Source of the DNA: a virus | Direction: 5' to 3' (one strand) | Virus genome (UHGV): UHGV-0097687 | DNA length: 26,529 nucleotides | Shown here: one piece after another, positions 5,850 to 16,374 of the stretch | Numbering within the stretch: the stretch's first letter is position 1 | Layout of the letters: each line of letters begins with the position of its first letter | The notes under the pieces: generated by a model | Databases searched by the model: none | What the model saw: the letters and a program-made list of their open reading frames with translations, nothing else | What the model was told of the DNA's origin: nothing | Program-made: the position numbers and the translations under genes

Positions 5850-7562
5850 CTAGGCCTGGGCTTCAGTTATAGTGGCAGCTTTTTCTAGATTCGATTTGAT
5901 GACAAGTTCATTTTTGTCTGCACTTATTTCTTCAAGTTTTTTCTGAAGAACCTCAACTTGTTTTTCACTTTCGATACCTTGCTTAGCCCGAATTTCGAGT
6001 AAAGATTTTGTCCTAAGTGCATTTTCTATTACATCTTCATCCATAAAACTCATGATATCCTCAACCAGATCCGGTACAAATCCCTCCGGCTGTAAATTTT
6101 TGCTTCTCAACTCTATAACCAAGTTGGCTGCAGTCTCTTTTGACATGGCTCCACTCGCGACAGAACCTTTCATATCTTTGTATACATTAGCGACTTTTGC
6201 TGCCACCTGTGTAGAAAGAATAACTTGTGCTCTAGCAACTACATCAAAAGTCGTAGGTAATTTCACTCCATTAGCAAACCCCTTATGAGACTTAAACCAT
6301 AATCTCTCAGTTATATAGTCTAAAGTGGCTGCGAATGGTATTGTTCTTTCTCCTTGAGTAGAAAAGTAATGTGATAGGGATTTGGTTATATTTTTACCCG
6401 TGATGAGTAGGGCTCCAGTTTGCTCTAACTTTATATTGCTTCTTCCTTTTCTTTTGTAATTTATCTTTGTGAAAATTTTTAAAGTATCAGCAATTTTATC
6501 CAATTCATAATCTGGGAATTCTCTTTTTAGTTTATCAAGTGTAGAGGTGCTTTCAATATTATACTCCGGCTTATCGTAATAATCAGTGTTAGCATCAAGA
6601 GAAATTTTCATTTTTCCTAGTTTTTCAAAAAACTCTATTTTTTTTATTGTGATGTCTGATTTTGTAGAACAGCTTTGTAGTAGATTGATCATTCCAGTCT
6701 TAGATGGGTCTGGATGTTGATTACGCTCGAAAATCTTTTCTGCTGCATAAAAGTAACTTTCAACTTCGCTTTGTGTTTCTTCAAAGTACTTTAATTCTAT
6801 TTTTGATTTATTTCCTGAGCGGTCTCGTAACCCCTTGACTAATAATAGAAATTCTTCAAACATACGATAATGAATATCGCCATTTAATCCTACAGCATCA
6901 AATAATAATTCCGTATCAAGAACTATTTGAAAATCATTCCTCCATGGCTCAGCATTCACTAAGTCTGAGTTATAACAGATCCCACCGTAAAGAATTAGTC
7001 CTTCTTCAACCTTGTTTAACTTATCGGTGAACAGAGGGTCTTTTGAATTCTGAATGATGAACTGACTGATAACTACGGAGTTCTCACTCTGCTTTCTGTC
7101 ATGAATAAAATATGAATAAAAATCTGATAATAGCTCTTCAATCTGCTCTAGATTAAGTTCTTCTTTACTAAAGGACTTAACGAATTGAATGAGCAAGTTT
7201 TTTATATAGTCTTGTTCTTCCTTTACTTGCTCGTAACTTGCTTTTAGATTATTGTTTCTATCAAATTTTTCAGTAACATAATATTTGCCATTTTTAAATT
7301 CCAACAAACCTATTTTCTTGAGTCTGTTTTTTAGACATGATTTCACTACAGCTTCAGGTATATCAAATCCATAGTCAGAATTTAGTTCCTGAGAGCACTT
7401 AGTTACGTCGAACTCCCATAACTGATGTATGACTATAGTTGAACATAGGAACTGAGCTAAAACATCGTATATATCTTTCTTATTTTCATGTAATTGACGA
7501 AAAAGAGCTGCAGATGCCAATAAACGTTGATCTTCCATAATTCCTTTCTTGAGAATACTCAT
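5850..7562 (-). CDS. Hypothetical 570-aa protein, AT-rich cargo gene (candidate defence or exclusion protein, function unknown)
   Basis: Long uninterrupted ORF in roughly 33% GC DNA; GGAGGGG RBS 4 nt before ATG; C-terminal coiled-coil-like region; no Walker, nuclease or RT motif recognised by eye. Confidence 0.7.
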   Translation of the reverse strand: MSILKKGIMEDQRLLASAALFRQLHENKKDIYDVLAQFLCSTIVIHQLWEFDVTKCSQELNSDYGFDIPEAVVKSCLKNRLKKIGLLEFKNGKYYVTEKFDRNNNLKASYEQVKEEQDYIKNLLIQFVKSFSKEELNLEQIEELLSDFYSYFIHDRKQSENSVVISQFIIQNSKDPLFTDKLNKVEEGLILYGGICYNSDLVNAEPWRNDFQIVLDTELLFDAVGLNGDIHYRMFEEFLLLVKGLRDRSGNKSKIELKYFEETQSEVESYFYAAEKIFERNQHPDPSKTGMINLLQSCSTKSDITIKKIEFFEKLGKMKISLDANTDYYDKPEYNIESTSTLDKLKREFPDYELDKIADTLKIFTKINYKRKGRSNIKLEQTGALLITGKNITKSLSHYFSTQGERTIPFAATLDYITERLWFKSHKGFANGVKLPTTFDVVARAQVILSTQVAAKVANVYKDMKGSVASGAMSKETAANLVIELRSKNLQPEGFVPDLVEDIMSFMDEDVIENALRTKSLLEIRAKQGIESEKQVEVLQKKLEEISADKNELVIKSNLEKAATITEAQA

Positions 7563-7663: not shown

Positions 7664-8300
7664 TTTTTTTTAACTATCTAAAGCTAGATTCCCTTGGTAT
7701 ACAAATATTGTACAACAAAACAAAAATTTTCAGAGTTTTATTCTTTTATTTGCCGTAGGGGCTCGGGTTTGTTCGAGGTTTCCATCTGAAGCCCTCAAAC
7801 TGATGACCGACTTCCCTTGATTAAGGATAGCGTTGCATTGACCCGTTGAACTCACAGCTCATAACAGACATTCACTACGGTTATGGCAGAAAGGTATGCA
7901 TGCTGGGGATGGGGAAGTTGTGAAAGAAAAGAAGGCTGCTGCGTCGTTTGACATCACGTCTATCTTTTTATTGGTTATGCAGGTCGTAGTGGGACAAAAC
8001 TGAGACACATAAGGCCTCACAATGGCTTGCAAGGCTTTACATGTTTTGATGTAGTGGGACGTGTGAGCGCAGTGTTGATGGGGTAATGCATTGAATTAGA
8101 AGCGAATTCTTATAATTCGTAATGCTAAGATCGTAGGGGCGTCCCCATTTTCGGTACTACCTAAATCAATGAGTTACCTAACTTTTAGTTATGACATAAA
8201 GATATATATGCTAAGTAAGATATAGAGAAGCTGGTAAAGCAATTAAAGCTGTTGCTACGTGTGTGGCGGCTGATGTATAGCCATTTATGCAGATGAAACG

Positions 8301-8326
8301 AAAAAAAGCCCACATCTGTGGGCTTT
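8301..8326 (-). terminator. Intrinsic terminator (strong on minus strand, weak on plus)
   Basis: Minus strand GCCCACA-GA-TGTGGGC followed by TTTTTTT; lies about 230 nt downstream of the methyltransferase stop. Confidence 0.65.
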
Positions 8327-8443
8327 CAAGTCACTCGGGAGCCGCGGCTCCTTTGCGTATCCTTTTTTGTCTCCTCACCGTCTGGTCGGTGTCCTGCTGA
8401 GACTGCTAACTTCCTGTTTTTCTTGGTGTTGTCCTTACACCGT

Positions 8444-8554: not shown

Positions 8555-9454
8555 TTATGTCTGGATGTGGTCGTCAACACATCCTCTTTTAAATACAGGC
8601 GCTTTTACCTTAGTTGGATCATCTGTTTTAAAGATTTTCAATCGTTCACTGAAGAACATTACCTCAGATCCTTTGTACCGATCTTGAGCACTGTAGTTTA
8701 TTCCATATACTAATGATGATGTCTTATACATAGCTTGGATCTCAGGAGTGTTATCGTAAGAAACAATCCAAGGTGTTTTAATATTATTCTGTACGACTTT
8801 TGCAACCCTAACATGATCATCATGATCATAATGGTTGATATATAAACCTTTACCTTTTATGTAATAAGGTGGATCCAAATATGTTAATGAGTTTTGTGGC
8901 AATTGAGTAACTATTTTTTTAATGAAATCAATTGCATCCATGTTATATAAATCTATTCTGTGACGATTTTCTGATATTTTATGGATTCGAGAAATCAAAT
9001 CACTCTTATTATAGCGAGCGTCAAGCTTCCATTTCCCTTCTTGATTTTTACCGCCAATTACTCCACCTTTTAATATTCCAGAACGATTTGTTCTATTGAG
9101 AAAAAAGGTTGAGAAACCAATTGTTAAAAGATCATGGTCTTTAGGATTATTAATTATATCTTTCTGCCTAAACCATTCATCCATTGTAACTTCTGTTCTT
9201 TCAATTAAAGAACATAATTGATCTGCATGATTTAATACACTGTGCCAAAAAGCATAAACAGAAATATTAATATCATTAAGGATGATTTTTTCAGCTGCAT
9301 TTAGATGTAACAGTTTCAATGCTAAACCAGCACCCCCAGCATATGGTTCGGCATAATGTATAGGCGAAAGATTATTTTCTTCAATAATCCGAAGCATGAA
9401 ATTTGCAAGCTTGCCTTTACCGCCAGGATAGCGAAGTGGGGTGTTAAAACGCAT
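8555..9454 (-). CDS. Dam-family (alpha-class) N6-adenine DNA methyltransferase
   Basis: N-terminal PLRYPGGKGKL and EPYAGGAG (SAM-binding motifs comparable to E. coli Dam) and catalytic YLDPPYY; AGAGG RBS; AT-rich. Confidence 0.85.
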   Translation of the reverse strand: MRFNTPLRYPGGKGKLANFMLRIIEENNLSPIHYAEPYAGGAGLALKLLHLNAAEKIILNDINISVYAFWHSVLNHADQLCSLIERTEVTMDEWFRQKDIINNPKDHDLLTIGFSTFFLNRTNRSGILKGGVIGGKNQEGKWKLDARYNKSDLISRIHKISENRHRIDLYNMDAIDFIKKIVTQLPQNSLTYLDPPYYIKGKGLYINHYDHDDHVRVAKVVQNNIKTPWIVSYDNTPEIQAMYKTSSLVYGINYSAQDRYKGSEVMFFSERLKIFKTDDPTKVKAPVFKRGCVDDHIQT

Positions 9455-9488
9455 ATGATACCTCTAAATGTCAGATCTAAAGTATATC

Positions 9489-9528
9489 AAAAAAAGGGCT
9501 TTATGGCCATCACATAAAACCCTTTTTT
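9489..9528. repeat. Long near-perfect inverted repeat (about 16-bp stem, 7-nt loop) between the ATPase and methyltransferase genes
   Basis: AAAAAAGGGCTTTATG-GCCATCA-CATAAAACCCTTTTTT; on the minus-strand RNA the single mismatch is a G-U pair. Confidence 0.6.
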
Positions 9529-9534
9529 AATCAA

Positions 9535-11268
9535 TTAGTTATCTGACAGATATGATGAGATGGTAGCAGAATCGACACCATGTCCACTTATCATAATAAC
9601 TTTAAGACTCTTTATTAGTTCATTCTTGAAGCTATCCGATTGAACAGGATTTTTCTCGACCCAATATCGATATGGGTTATCTTTAACTCTTCCTTTGACT
9701 TGGGCCTGAAATTGAGTCGTATGTGCAAAATCTTTAAACAGTTTTCTAACTCTCCCTCCATGGTTTTTGTTAACTTTTTTATAATTATCTATAAGGATTT
9801 TTAAATCAATCGGAGCGTTACCAATCTTTAGCGTTGCAATTATGTCTTTAGCTGTTTTCATAAAAACAGCTTTTGTAAATTTATTTTTATTTTCCCAATA
9901 TGCATCATCAGGTGGTAAATTATATAAAAACTCAAAAATCATTTGGTCTGGAGGTAAGGTGCTTGGAAGCAAACATAAGTTTTTTTCTTTTTTGGCTTTT
10001 TTTGCATTAGCACTGTTGTCGTGAACAACATCACCGTCTAAGACGATCAAGCTTTTAGCTGTAAATTCTGGTATTTTTCTTGCCATTAAGTCAAGCATGG
10101 CAGAGCAGCTAATATTTATATTTCCTAATGGATTTAATATTTTATTTATTTTTCGATCTGTTATCAATTGTTTGAAAAAGTCGAAACCTTCTTTGTCTTC
10201 AAAATATACATTTGCCTTTGGAAGACAAATGTCATCATTAATTTTTACAGTTTCAACATGTAAATCAGCGTGGATATCTGTCCATGAAAGATTATTCTTT
10301 GTTTTAATATCTCCATATGTGTCTGTAAGATATATTGTTTTAAAGCTATCACTATCTTGTTTTGAACGATTATAGATATCCTCTATTATTAATGGAGAGT
10401 GCGAGGTCATGATTATTTGCAGATCGTATTGTTTTGCTGCTTTAGTTAGAATATTAATTAGCTCTAACTGTGCCGCAGGGAAAAGACCTGCATCGGCTTC
10501 ATCAATTAACAATATTCCGCCATGATAATCAGAATAAGTTTCCTTCAATCTTTTAAATGAAAAAATTGCCTGGATTAATTGTCCAACATTATCTTCACCA
10601 ACAGATACTGATTGGTGATCATAATTGTCACCATGGACAACCATTGAATCGATAGTACCTTTTGTTGCTGTTACTGAGCTTCCATTGTTTTTTAGTAAGA
10701 GTTGGTTACTCATCATTCTGATTTCATCAGAATTTTCATTGATGTACTGAACATCCCGTGTTGAGTAATCAGTCCTTAATGTAATAGGAAGAAGTCGTGC
10801 TAAGCTTAAAAAAATAACAGGATGAGTAACGTTTCTACTTTGGTTTTTTTCCGGTATTGAATCATTTCCCCTGACTACAGGCCTAGATTTATCTCTGTCA
10901 CTGTAGCTGTATAAACCTAATGTTAGTTTTTCAAGATGTTTGTTCGATGCACCATCATAGACACTAATTTTGACGTCCATTGAACCAGGAACATCAAATT
11001 GTTCTGAAAGCCTAAAATGTTCGCTGAAAGCTGACTTGAAGCTGCCATTTGTTAATGTTTTATATTGTGTTAAATCAGTCTCAGGGTTTTTGGTAAAGTC
11101 CTTTGTAAAGCTAAATATTTGGGCGATAATGCCAAGAATTGTGGATTTAGATGTGCCATTTTTACCACAAATAACAGTTAGGCGAGAACCAAACTCGATG
11201 TTTATATTTTTCAGTCCGCGAAACTTCACAACATTTATATTTTTTAGTTTGGTAATTTGATTTGCCAT
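9535..11268 (-). CDS. OLD-family ATP-dependent nuclease-like protein (N-terminal ABC-type ATPase, C-terminal Toprim-like domain)
   Basis: Start set at MANQITKLKNINVVKFRGL..; Walker A GKNGTSKST, Walker B/D-loop ILLIDEADAGL, H-loop MTSHSP; C-terminal ..FEDKEGFD.. and ..LIVLDGD.. resemble Toprim E and DxD motifs; 577 aa, similar in size to P2 Old and GajA. Confidence 0.72.
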   Translation of the reverse strand: MANQITKLKNINVVKFRGLKNINIEFGSRLTVICGKNGTSKSTILGIIAQIFSFTKDFTKNPETDLTQYKTLTNGSFKSAFSEHFRLSEQFDVPGSMDVKISVYDGASNKHLEKLTLGLYSYSDRDKSRPVVRGNDSIPEKNQSRNVTHPVIFLSLARLLPITLRTDYSTRDVQYINENSDEIRMMSNQLLLKNNGSSVTATKGTIDSMVVHGDNYDHQSVSVGEDNVGQLIQAIFSFKRLKETYSDYHGGILLIDEADAGLFPAAQLELINILTKAAKQYDLQIIMTSHSPLIIEDIYNRSKQDSDSFKTIYLTDTYGDIKTKNNLSWTDIHADLHVETVKINDDICLPKANVYFEDKEGFDFFKQLITDRKINKILNPLGNINISCSAMLDLMARKIPEFTAKSLIVLDGDVVHDNSANAKKAKKEKNLCLLPSTLPPDQMIFEFLYNLPPDDAYWENKNKFTKAVFMKTAKDIIATLKIGNAPIDLKILIDNYKKVNKNHGGRVRKLFKDFAHTTQFQAQVKGRVKDNPYRYWVEKNPVQSDSFKNELIKSLKVIMISGHGVDSATISSYLSDN

Positions 11269-11290
11269 GTTTCTATCTTGCTCCGTAAAA

Positions 11291-11309
11291 TGGCCACAAA
11301 TTGTGGCCA
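11291..11309. promoter_or_regulatory. Perfect palindrome TGGCCACAA-A-TTGTGGCCA between int stop and ATPase start (int terminator or operator)
   Basis: 9-bp perfect arms; on minus strand followed by ATTTTAC. Confidence 0.35.
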
Positions 11310-11326
11310 ATAGTTTCATGCTTGGA

Positions 11327-12493
11327 TTATATTGTTATCTTCTTCAAGCTTGTTTGTCCATCATATTCCTTCAGATATGAGCCATAGTGCCTGAAAAGCA
11401 TCTCCGGCCCTTTATGCCCCATTTGAGCTGCAAGCCAAAACAGGTTTGCTCCCCGGCTGATATGGCGGGTGGCGAATGTATGCCTGGTTTGATATGGATT
11501 TCTGTAACGAATACCTGCTTTTCGCAATGTTGGCACCCATGCTTTTTTCCTGATTGCATCAGCACTTGCCCAGGGCTTATTGGTCTTTGGATCTTCAAAG
11601 ACAGTAGCATCCTTCATGAATGTAAATGGCTTCTGATTTATCAGCGCCAACATTGCATCTTCTGTCAGTTCAACTTTACGAGTACCGGCTTTTGTCTTTG
11701 TTCCTTTGATAACACCGACAACACTTGCGCTCTGGACATGGGCAGTTTTTCCAACAAAGTCGATATCACGCCATCGAAGGGCACATAATTCAGAACTACG
11801 CAGGCCTGTATGTATAGCGAACCGGAACAGATTCTCCCATTGTTTGTTTCCGGCTGCTGTTAGTAATGCATCAACTTCTGCTGGTGATAGCGGATCAACC
11901 ACGTAGCTGCTTTCTGCTTCTGACTTATCACTTTGGTAGCGCGAAGCAGTTACCAACGATACGGGGTTAATTTGAAGTACCCCATCGGTTACGGCTTCAT
12001 CAAGTGCTGACCGCAGGAAAGATAACTGGTTGCGAATTGTTTTTAAGGTCGTTTTCTGGCTTTGAATCCACGCTTTCAGGATTGCTGGTGTTAATTCACT
12101 TGCAGGGCAAATGTGGAGTGAGGCTAACGCACTACGGCATTTTTTATAACCACCAATCGTAGAGGGTGAAAGTTTTCTCGTTTCGCAGATTTCAAGGTAT
12201 TCGTCCAGGTACATTTTTACCGTTTTGCCTGCAGCAGCATTACCAAAAATTTTCAAACGAGCAGAACGGGGAAAATATTCCGCATAAATGAATGTTCCCC
12301 TTTCGATCTTATTATGAATTTCGCCGAGTGTGCGCTCGGCGTATTTAATGTTCTTTGGTGTTACTTCCAGATTGGAAAGAGGCTCACGACATTTAACTCC
12401 TTTGTAGGTGAAAGTTATATTGATCGTTTCGCCCTGGCGGTGTTTCCTGATTGTTACGCCGCGCGGTAGTTTGAGCAGTTTTGTCTGGCCCAT
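11327..12493 (-). CDS. int: Tyrosine recombinase (phage integrase) with N-terminal arm-binding domain
   Basis: 388 aa; C-terminal catalytic motifs ..HTGLRSSEL.. and ..RHTFATRHISRGANLFWLAAQMGHKGPEMLFRHYGSYL (R..H..R..Y); start overlaps xis. Confidence 0.9.
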   Translation of the reverse strand: MGQTKLLKLPRGVTIRKHRQGETINITFTYKGVKCREPLSNLEVTPKNIKYAERTLGEIHNKIERGTFIYAEYFPRSARLKIFGNAAAGKTVKMYLDEYLEICETRKLSPSTIGGYKKCRSALASLHICPASELTPAILKAWIQSQKTTLKTIRNQLSFLRSALDEAVTDGVLQINPVSLVTASRYQSDKSEAESSYVVDPLSPAEVDALLTAAGNKQWENLFRFAIHTGLRSSELCALRWRDIDFVGKTAHVQSASVVGVIKGTKTKAGTRKVELTEDAMLALINQKPFTFMKDATVFEDPKTNKPWASADAIRKKAWVPTLRKAGIRYRNPYQTRHTFATRHISRGANLFWLAAQMGHKGPEMLFRHYGSYLKEYDGQTSLKKITI

Positions 12494-16310: not shown

Positions 16311-16374
16311 ATGTAGGCAATCCTACCACATGCCAATGTAGGATTCTTGACATTGGCATGTTGGATATCCTACA
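16311..16374. promoter_or_regulatory. Right operator region (OR) with three repressor-type sites between repressor and cro-like genes
   Basis: ATGTAGGCAATCCTACCACAT (16311-16331), ATGTAGGATTCTTGACAT (16335-16352), ATGTTGGATATCCTACAT (16357-16374); the third is the reverse complement of the OL site. Confidence 0.6.

Follow-up and report, generated by a model that had tools for sequence, protein, structure and literature searches.

In the phage genome UHGV-0097687, an ATPase gene and a DNA methyltransferase gene follow one another on the minus strand, and a long hairpin lies between them. Whether this hairpin controls the two genes, and by which mechanism, is the question that the locus raises. 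The first-pass annotation had proposed an attenuator, an RNase processing site or a protein-binding palindrome setting the ratio of nuclease to methylase, a control point if the pair were toxin/immunity-like. We analysed the whole stretch of 26,529 nt (hereafter, the window) together with relatives of the locus. The hairpin DNA also carries a predicted methylase promoter, so that ATPase and methylase could be expressed separately, and it is on balance probable that the gap forms a composite terminator-promoter junction within a phage-borne, restriction-modification-like cassette whose two genes are transcribed separately.

The ATPase-methylase cassette and its setting

Pfam and NCBIfam annotation identified the window as a lambdoid phage genome. 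The plus strand carries a tail tip J fragment, a lom/OmpX-like gene and a tail fibre, and the minus strand a cI-like repressor, YfdQ/YfdR-like genes and the integrase (11327-12493). Along the minus strand the order is int, ATPase, hairpin, methylase, a terminator-like hairpin (8327-8304) and the attachment region; the prophage junction of E. coli JJ1886 falls at about window position 8302, beside the latter hairpin. The window runs through the attachment region (~8290-8330), in the order J, lom, fibre and, after an interval, att, methylase, ATPase and int. Because it is continuous across att, it represents the phage (attP-intact) permutation and not an integrated prophage end. DNA on the att side resembles the attP region of a phage with an annotated tmRNA pseudogene there. 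Between int and attP, no ORF with family support was found besides ATPase and methylase, nor any small HTH controller gene. Beyond the attachment region lies a 570-aa ORF (5850-7562, minus strand) for which Pfam, PADLOC and NCBIfam gave no match. An inverted repeat at 16326-16363 (ACATGCCAATGT...ACATTGGCATGT), with 14-bp arms and a 10-nt loop, overlaps both a divergent promoter-like site (TTGACA) and the beginning of the cI-like repressor gene, and looks like an operator.

The units of the cassette are as follows.

9535-11319, minus strand: gene of an OLD-like, ABC-type ATPase whose C-terminal domain is probably TOPRIM; ORF of 594 aa, stop codon TAA at 9537-9535
8555-9454, minus strand: gene of a D12-class (Dam-family) N6-adenine DNA methyltransferase; Pfam PF02086, 1.8e-19
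8304-8327, minus strand: terminator-like hairpin and T-run closing the methylase unit; terminator scan, core d +31.5 (score defined below); adjoins the attachment site

The true start of the ATPase is probably the ATG at 11268, the 18th codon of the ORF (MANQITKL), which gives a protein of 577 aa; this is the RefSeq annotation in JJ1886 and also the length of most database homologues, and the first 17 codons of the 594-aa ORF span a conserved palindrome. Between this probable start and the stop of int (11327), the minus strand has at 11291-11309 a perfect palindrome (9+1+9), TGGCCACAA-T-TTGTGGCCA, with TTTT after it. It could serve as an operator, as a leader hairpin or, with d at about +0.8, as a weak tI-like terminator of int. 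One related locus, L069, retains the int-side hairpin with C-G to U-A changes and without the word TGGCCA.

The identification of the neighbouring genes as an ATPase and a methyltransferase was borne out by Pfam, with AAA_15, AAA_21 and AAA_23 matches for the former and the D12-class match for the latter. In PADLOC, the ATPase matched PtuA/GajA/AriA-like models. Its AlphaFold (AF2) model, made with 40 homologues, had a pLDDT of 88, and the best full-length Foldseek matches of this model were GajA (8u7i/8sm3) and the Thermus OLD protein (6p74), at a TM score of only about 0.3. The C-terminal 280 aa had no match in Pfam or the PDB by sequence, a 25-sequence profile included. Residues E357 and D411xD413 were invariant, as expected of a TOPRIM nuclease domain. 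That the ATPase is a nuclease is a reasonable inference from these model matches and residues, so that the earlier description of a nuclease in a possibly toxin/immunity-like pair is plausible in its first part, and in its second takes the form of a pair that is plausibly restriction-modification-like.

The methylase matched PD-Lambda-5_B best in PADLOC (2e-124), followed by MTase_II (1.8e-107), and in NCBIfam it fell in the dam subfamily. The PD-lambda-5 system consists of a methylase of the same family and a ParB/HEPN protein. Membership of the cassette in PD-lambda-5 was considered and rejected, since the partner is a PtuA/GajA/AriA-type ATPase and not ParB/HEPN; the PD-Lambda-5_A model was absent among the best 25 of 114 PADLOC matches for this ATPase. 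The cassette of OLD-like ATPase (probable TOPRIM) and D12 methylase is conserved in about 190 loci across Proteobacteria. Its carriers are lambdoid prophages and one of the e14-like kind, an ICE and chromosomal islands, and most copies from beta-proteobacteria have overlapping genes. It is not known to fit any of the four OLD classes. No description of the pairing was found in the literature searched, and the paper on the phiNP prophage gives these genes the label 'ATPase' only.

Hairpin, terminator features and probable promoter within one gap

The hairpin occupies the 80-nt gap between the ATPase stop and the methylase ATG (9455-9534). Read on the plus strand and then on the sense (minus) strand, its parts are as follows.

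9490-9505, plus-strand reading: 5' arm, AAAAAAGGGCTTTATG
9506-9512, plus-strand reading: loop, GCCATCA
9513-9528, plus-strand reading: 3' arm, CATAAAACCCTTTTTT
9513-9528, minus strand: sense 5' arm, AAAAAAGGGUUUUAUG; upstream of the promoter core
9506-9512, minus strand: sense loop, 7 nt, UGAUGGC; contains most of the -35 hexamer
9490-9505, minus strand: sense 3' arm, CAUAAAGCCCUUUUUU; doubles as promoter spacer
9489-9495, minus strand: T-run (U-tract) of seven T; abuts the GGG/CCC base of the 10-bp core stem

On the plus strand the stem has 16 pairs with a single mismatch, C9499:A9519, and A9489 lengthens its A-run to 7. On the minus, coding strand this mismatch reads as G.U, which leaves the RNA stem continuous. 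A whole-window scan showed that it is the longest short-loop inverted repeat of the 26.5 kb; in 40 first-order Markov shuffles, stems of at least 15 bp never appeared, and each shuffle had on average 0.48 stems of 12 bp or more. The sense strand of the 80-nt gap folded at -26.8 kcal/mol (z = -4.72), a stability that 0/200 shuffles equalled, and the plus strand at -17.1 kcal/mol (z = -3.43). The hairpin was retained in both the MFE and the centroid fold of its 221-nt context. Coordinates, folding and shuffles thus agree with the earlier claim of a roughly 16-bp stem and a 7-nt loop in the 80-nt ATPase-methyltransferase gap: the hairpin is real and non-random.

Outside the hairpin, an exact 8-bp complement between 9541-9548 and 9469-9476 (plus strand, ATCTGACA and TGTCAGAT) links the last ATPase codons to the methylase leader, and in the 221-nt fold it forms part of an 8+4-bp outer helix that encloses the hairpin; this outer helix is only partly retained in phiNP. 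Rfam 15 gave no match in the window at gathering score and, at a permissive threshold over 9350-9650, only chance-level matches (E >= 0.07). A tRNA/tmRNA scan found none.

The anatomy of the hairpin is most likely that of an intrinsic (Rho-independent) terminator of the ATPase gene. The stem begins 6 nt after the ATPase TAA, on the strand of the gene, and the minus-strand RNA reads AAAAAA-GGGUUUUAUG-UGAUGGC-CAUAAAGCCC-UUUUUUU from that point. The 10-bp core formed by GGGUUUUAUG and CAUAAAGCCC has a dG of -11.2 kcal/mol and reaches 16 bp with the A/U run, 6/7 U of the U-tract being able to pair with the upstream A-run. The GGG/CCC anchor of the core stem sits beside the U-tract. With a hairpin/U-tract formula of the d'Aubenton-Carafa type, the terminator score was d = +13.3 in the sense direction compared to -6.7 in antisense. 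A consensus terminator scan did not have the 9490-9528 hairpin among its listed sites, presumably because it treats the T-run as stem. A and U prevail in the upper part of the stem, the 10-bp core having 4 G-C pairs, and termination may therefore be partial. That transcripts do end at the hairpin U-tract we consider likely.

The same bases and those immediately downstream hold the elements of a candidate methylase promoter and its leader.

9504-9509, minus strand: -35-like hexamer TGGCCA; 4/6 match to TTGACA, promoter scan
9481-9489, minus strand: extended -10, TGaTATACT, with TG at 9489-9488 and TATACT at 9486-9481; promoter scan
9461-9464, minus strand: Shine-Dalgarno GAGG, 6 nt (9460-9455) ahead of the methylase ATG; nearly invariant in the alignment
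9456-9489, minus strand: possible second hairpin pairing the -10 region with the Shine-Dalgarno (SD) sequence; MFE fold

The scan scored minus-strand 9509-9481 at 9/12 with the TG, and the 17-nt spacer between -35 and -10 is made of the 3' arm and the T-run. The predicted transcription start of the methylase lies at ~9476-9472. Promoter-like sites are not enriched in the region (27 found compared to 31 expected), and the promoter call must therefore rest on conservation. The putative second hairpin, which pairs with the SD, could form only in read-through RNA; near relatives alone retain it, and L067, L069 and L199 have either another structure or none.

The gap across relatives

Protein-based searches of genomes, viral contigs and metagenomes, together with contig look-ups of homologues from Klebsiella, Rahnella, Pantoea, Cronobacter, Yersinia and Enterobacter, gathered about 200 loci. 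A methylase homologue follows nearly every ATPase homologue, down to 42% identity. Among co-oriented pairs, gap lengths were distributed as follows.

Overlapping or <=10 nt: 69 loci
11-39 nt: 9 loci
40-69 nt: 11 loci
70-100 nt: 87 loci
>100 nt: 1 locus

The tight pairs are mostly beta-proteobacterial, and gaps of ~80 nt belong to mobile elements of Enterobacterales; given a tight operon elsewhere, the gap is therefore a derived insertion of regulatory DNA. In addition to its presence in Citrobacter phage phiNP, the gap was found in 85/5426 complete E. coli genomes, as a single copy and always between ATPase and methylase; this single context led us to reject a dispersed repeat (REP/ERIC-like). 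As for individual loci, L007 (Symbiopectobacterium) has both cassette genes broken and the gap hairpin intact, with TGTCCA, and in L207 (Enterovibrio) the methylase is convergent to the ATPase, with a different, G+C-rich hairpin between them.

We compared the promoter positions in 32 distinct gaps of 70-95 nt, from loci with ATPase identity of 55-100%. Results showed TG at -15/-14 in 31/32 variants and TAnAnT in all 32. TGGCCA stood 17-18 nt upstream of the -10 in 27/32, and the exceptions TGTCCA, TGCGCA, TATTCA and TATCCA all retain T---CA. The distance from -10 to ATG was exactly 26 nt in 27/32. The invariant alignment columns of the gap coincide with these promoter positions, and the T-run before TG is retained even in variants that have no hairpin. 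A sigma-70 extended -10 promoter for the methylase is thus very probable, and it is the most secure inference of the analysis.

The hairpin has a more uneven record. It is intact in every variant of the clade with at least 87% ATPase identity, and also in L069/L205, L198 (Klebsiella), L199, L200, L202 (Rahnella), L204 (Cronobacter) and L184/L208. Several pairs changed with pairing preserved. Core pair 4 is C-G in phiNP, U.G in the window, U-A in L200 and G-C in L184; core pair 5 went from U-A to A-U independently in L204 and L184; core pair 3 went from G-C to C-G in L184, core pair 1 from G-C to A-U in L204, and lower-stem A-U pairs became U-A in L202. Quantification over 16 hairpin-bearing variants, a set (A4) picked for having the hairpin, with a small covariation sample and related sequences, gave 87.9% of cells paired and 7 pairs changed on both sides. 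This pairing was matched by 0/500 shuffles, and slid registers scored far lower. In 31 unselected variants, 71% of cells were paired compared to 62% after shuffling, with a covariation score of 0.262 compared to 0.143. Wobble pairs stood at roughly 2:1, sense to antisense, in a manual count with too few events to decide. In L204 an 11-bp stem is kept despite loss of TGGCCA, and the stem would therefore be maintained for its own sake. L003 (the ICE) and L194 have other hairpins at the same place.

The T-run is 5-8 T long in all hairpin-bearing variants, whereas the A-run erodes (GAAAA, GCAAA, TTAAA, AGTATT). Conservation of the T-run over the A-run fits a sense-direction terminator and equally a promoter spacer; because the promoter constrains the same bases, conservation of the T-run and 3' arm is not independent evidence of a terminator. 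The hairpin has decayed in L067/L145, L103/L203, L097, L157-160/L210 and L209, where the promoter is retained or has come nearer to consensus. About half of the gap variants still have the hairpin, and only 10/31 variants score as terminators. Since few variants score in this way and the hairpin has decayed while the promoter persists, termination appears dispensable for the cassette. As judged from the aligned gaps, the hairpin appears to be a selected yet dispensable accessory of the junction.

Alternative explanations, proposed operation and known systems

This record is also what a promoter acting by itself might leave, if the sense 5' arm were an A/T-rich, UP-like region, its complementarity to the T-rich spacer incidental, and termination slight or nil. 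The nearly invariant promoter geometry, the loss of the hairpin in about half of the lineages with the cassette kept, the A/U-rich upper stem and the persistence of the T-run before TG in hairpin-less variants, which marks it as a promoter feature, all point in that direction. We nevertheless regard this explanation as unlikely: compensatory double changes and G.U intermediates preserve pairing in L200, L202, L204 and L184/L208, the L204 stem survives loss of the -35 word, L003 and L194 carry different hairpins at the same place, and shuffles never reached an uninterrupted 16-bp stem. Selection on an RNA hairpin could instead reflect an RNase III/RNase E-type site, or a barrier to 3'-exonucleases, on a bicistronic mRNA whose parts decay differentially in the manner of lambda sib. 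In favour of this, the sense-strand duplex is long (16 bp) and stands between two phage-operon cistrons beside int, and the 8+4-bp outer helix encloses it in the longer fold. However, U7 after a G-C-anchored stem is a specific signature of termination, the independent, conserved promoter removes the need for an obligatory bicistronic mRNA, and the outer helix uses coding sequence and is kept only in part in phiNP. With 16 largely A-U pairs, moreover, the stem is short for RNase III. Processing is therefore a quite unlikely role for the element.

At the level of DNA, the inverted repeat or the loop palindrome ATGGCCAT might bind a dimeric regulator of the methylase promoter, with a controller protein, the methylase itself or a host factor as candidate binders and TGGCCA perhaps methylated. 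A palindrome overlapping -35 and spacer occupies the usual place of a repressor, TGGCCA is conserved at -35 down to 39-55% methylase identity (L098, L099, L008), L003 has a second TGGCCA at -10/+1, and the word is a documented m6A motif in Enterobacterales. Yet no regulator gene lies between int and attP, and the arm sequences vary by lineage while pairing persists, including through G.U pairs that are asymmetric in DNA. In addition, variants of the -35 word retain T---CA as a plain -35 would, and TGGCCA is not avoided in the window (8 found compared to 8.35 expected). We judge an operator very unlikely. All in all, the three mechanisms first proposed for the hairpin fared differently: an attenuator or terminator fits the sense-strand stem, the U7 and the position 6 nt past the stop, and we found no positive evidence for an RNase site or for protein binding.

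A related speculation, which we hold to be a long shot, is that TGGCCA, the -35 word and part of the loop, is the methylase's own target, and that the junction combines a terminator with a methylation-sensitive, self-limiting promoter in a restriction-like defence cassette. The word is kept 17-18 nt from the -10 in L098, L099 and L008 and occurs twice in the L003 promoter. Against a special role of TGGCCA stand the plain -35 behaviour of its variants, the L069 int-side hairpin that lacks it and the lack of site avoidance in the window. Published methylomes report TGGCCA as an m6A motif with no assigned enzyme in Photorhabdus, and in Chania REBASE-predicted alpha-class orphan methylases are given for it; neither m6A report links the word to this methylase family, and other papers describe TGGCCA as m4C. 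The ST131 methylome paper lists a JJ1886 methylase under a REBASE name only, with no motif. In the tight-operon relatives, TGGCCA was not found upstream of the ATPase; recurrent copies at +101/+161 lie within the methylase coding sequence. If the speculation were true, an OLD-like nuclease/Dam-family methylase defence system would be present on lambdoid phages, ICEs and chromosomal islands across Proteobacteria.

Returning to the composite terminator-promoter junction, we propose that minus-strand transcription of the ATPase gene would form the hairpin 6 nt past the stop codon and that most ATPase transcripts would end there. Pairing of the U-tail with the upstream A-run would next extend the hairpin to a blunt 16 bp and protect the 3' end. 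In the DNA, the loop TGGCCA, the 17-nt spacer and TGaTATACT would act as a sigma-70 promoter from which a methylase mRNA begins about 20 nt upstream of GAGG-ATG, so that methylase would be made from its own promoter regardless of nuclease transcription. The terminator would shield this promoter from occlusion by upstream transcription, read-through would add methylase and never nuclease alone, and the methylase unit would end at its own terminator (8327-8304). We infer actual termination, the actual start site and an effect on the expression ratio from the sequence. The suggestion of a control point holds insofar as the element stands at the boundary of the cargo genes and probably sets their relative expression; it had missed the embedded promoter.

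A terminator-promoter junction is an ordinary kind of element, part of routine gene punctuation. Its import here would be that ATPase and methylase form two transcription units in enterobacterial phages, when outside this clade they are mostly one overlapping operon. The model predicts that methylase is expressed on its own in lysogens. Separate methylase expression, at least equal to that of the nuclease, would, if true, explain how a temperate phage safely carries a nuclease-methylase pair. The junction is relevant to cloning of the cassette, to lysogen methylomes and to anti-phage tests of the OLD-like protein, and it offers an experimental handle, since mutations in the 5' arm would leave the promoter intact.

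Known systems share parts of this arrangement. With intrinsic terminators of E. coli and its phages, of the A-tract/U-tract kind, the hairpin shares a sense stem-loop, basal G-C pairs, a 7-nt loop, U7 and a position near the stop codon, and the upstream A-run gives it the two-way look of many bacterial ones; unlike ordinary examples, its upper stem is A/U-rich, it is superimposed on a promoter and it scores in the sense direction only. PD-lambda-5 has a methylase of the same family, with a ParB/HEPN partner where an ATPase stands here. Restriction-modification control makes use of separate methylase promoters, C-protein operators and methylation-sensitive promoters, the last as in CfrBI; the likeness lies in a nuclease-like gene next to a methylase that has a promoter of its own, whose -35 contains a palindromic word. 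Unlike C-protein restriction-modification systems, the cassette has no C gene, and its partner protein is OLD-like and not a classical REase.

Like the lambda tI/sib retroregulator, the hairpin lies near int in a lambdoid phage and could act on read-through transcripts. Here, however, another gene and a distance of 1.8 kb separate it from int, it lies on int's side of attP, its duplex is shorter, and nothing indicates dependence on RNase III. In E. coli K-12, the frd terminator overlaps the ampC promoter region, and the hairpin, downstream of the ampC promoter, attenuates its transcripts. Common to both loci are the end of one unit and the start of the next in one short stretch and a terminator hairpin that affects the downstream gene; in contrast to frd/ampC, the present hairpin lies in the -35 and spacer and is absent from promoter-derived RNA. 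Finally, Hendrix and colleagues reportedly described moron units in lambdoid prophages, each a gene with its own promoter and its own terminator. The methylase, close to int and att in a lambdoid genome, likewise has a predicted promoter (9509-9481) on one side and a terminator-like hairpin (8327-8304) on the other. Unlike moron units, the cassette has two tandem cargo genes, the same bases would serve both to end the first and to start the second, and distant relatives carry both genes as one overlapping operon.
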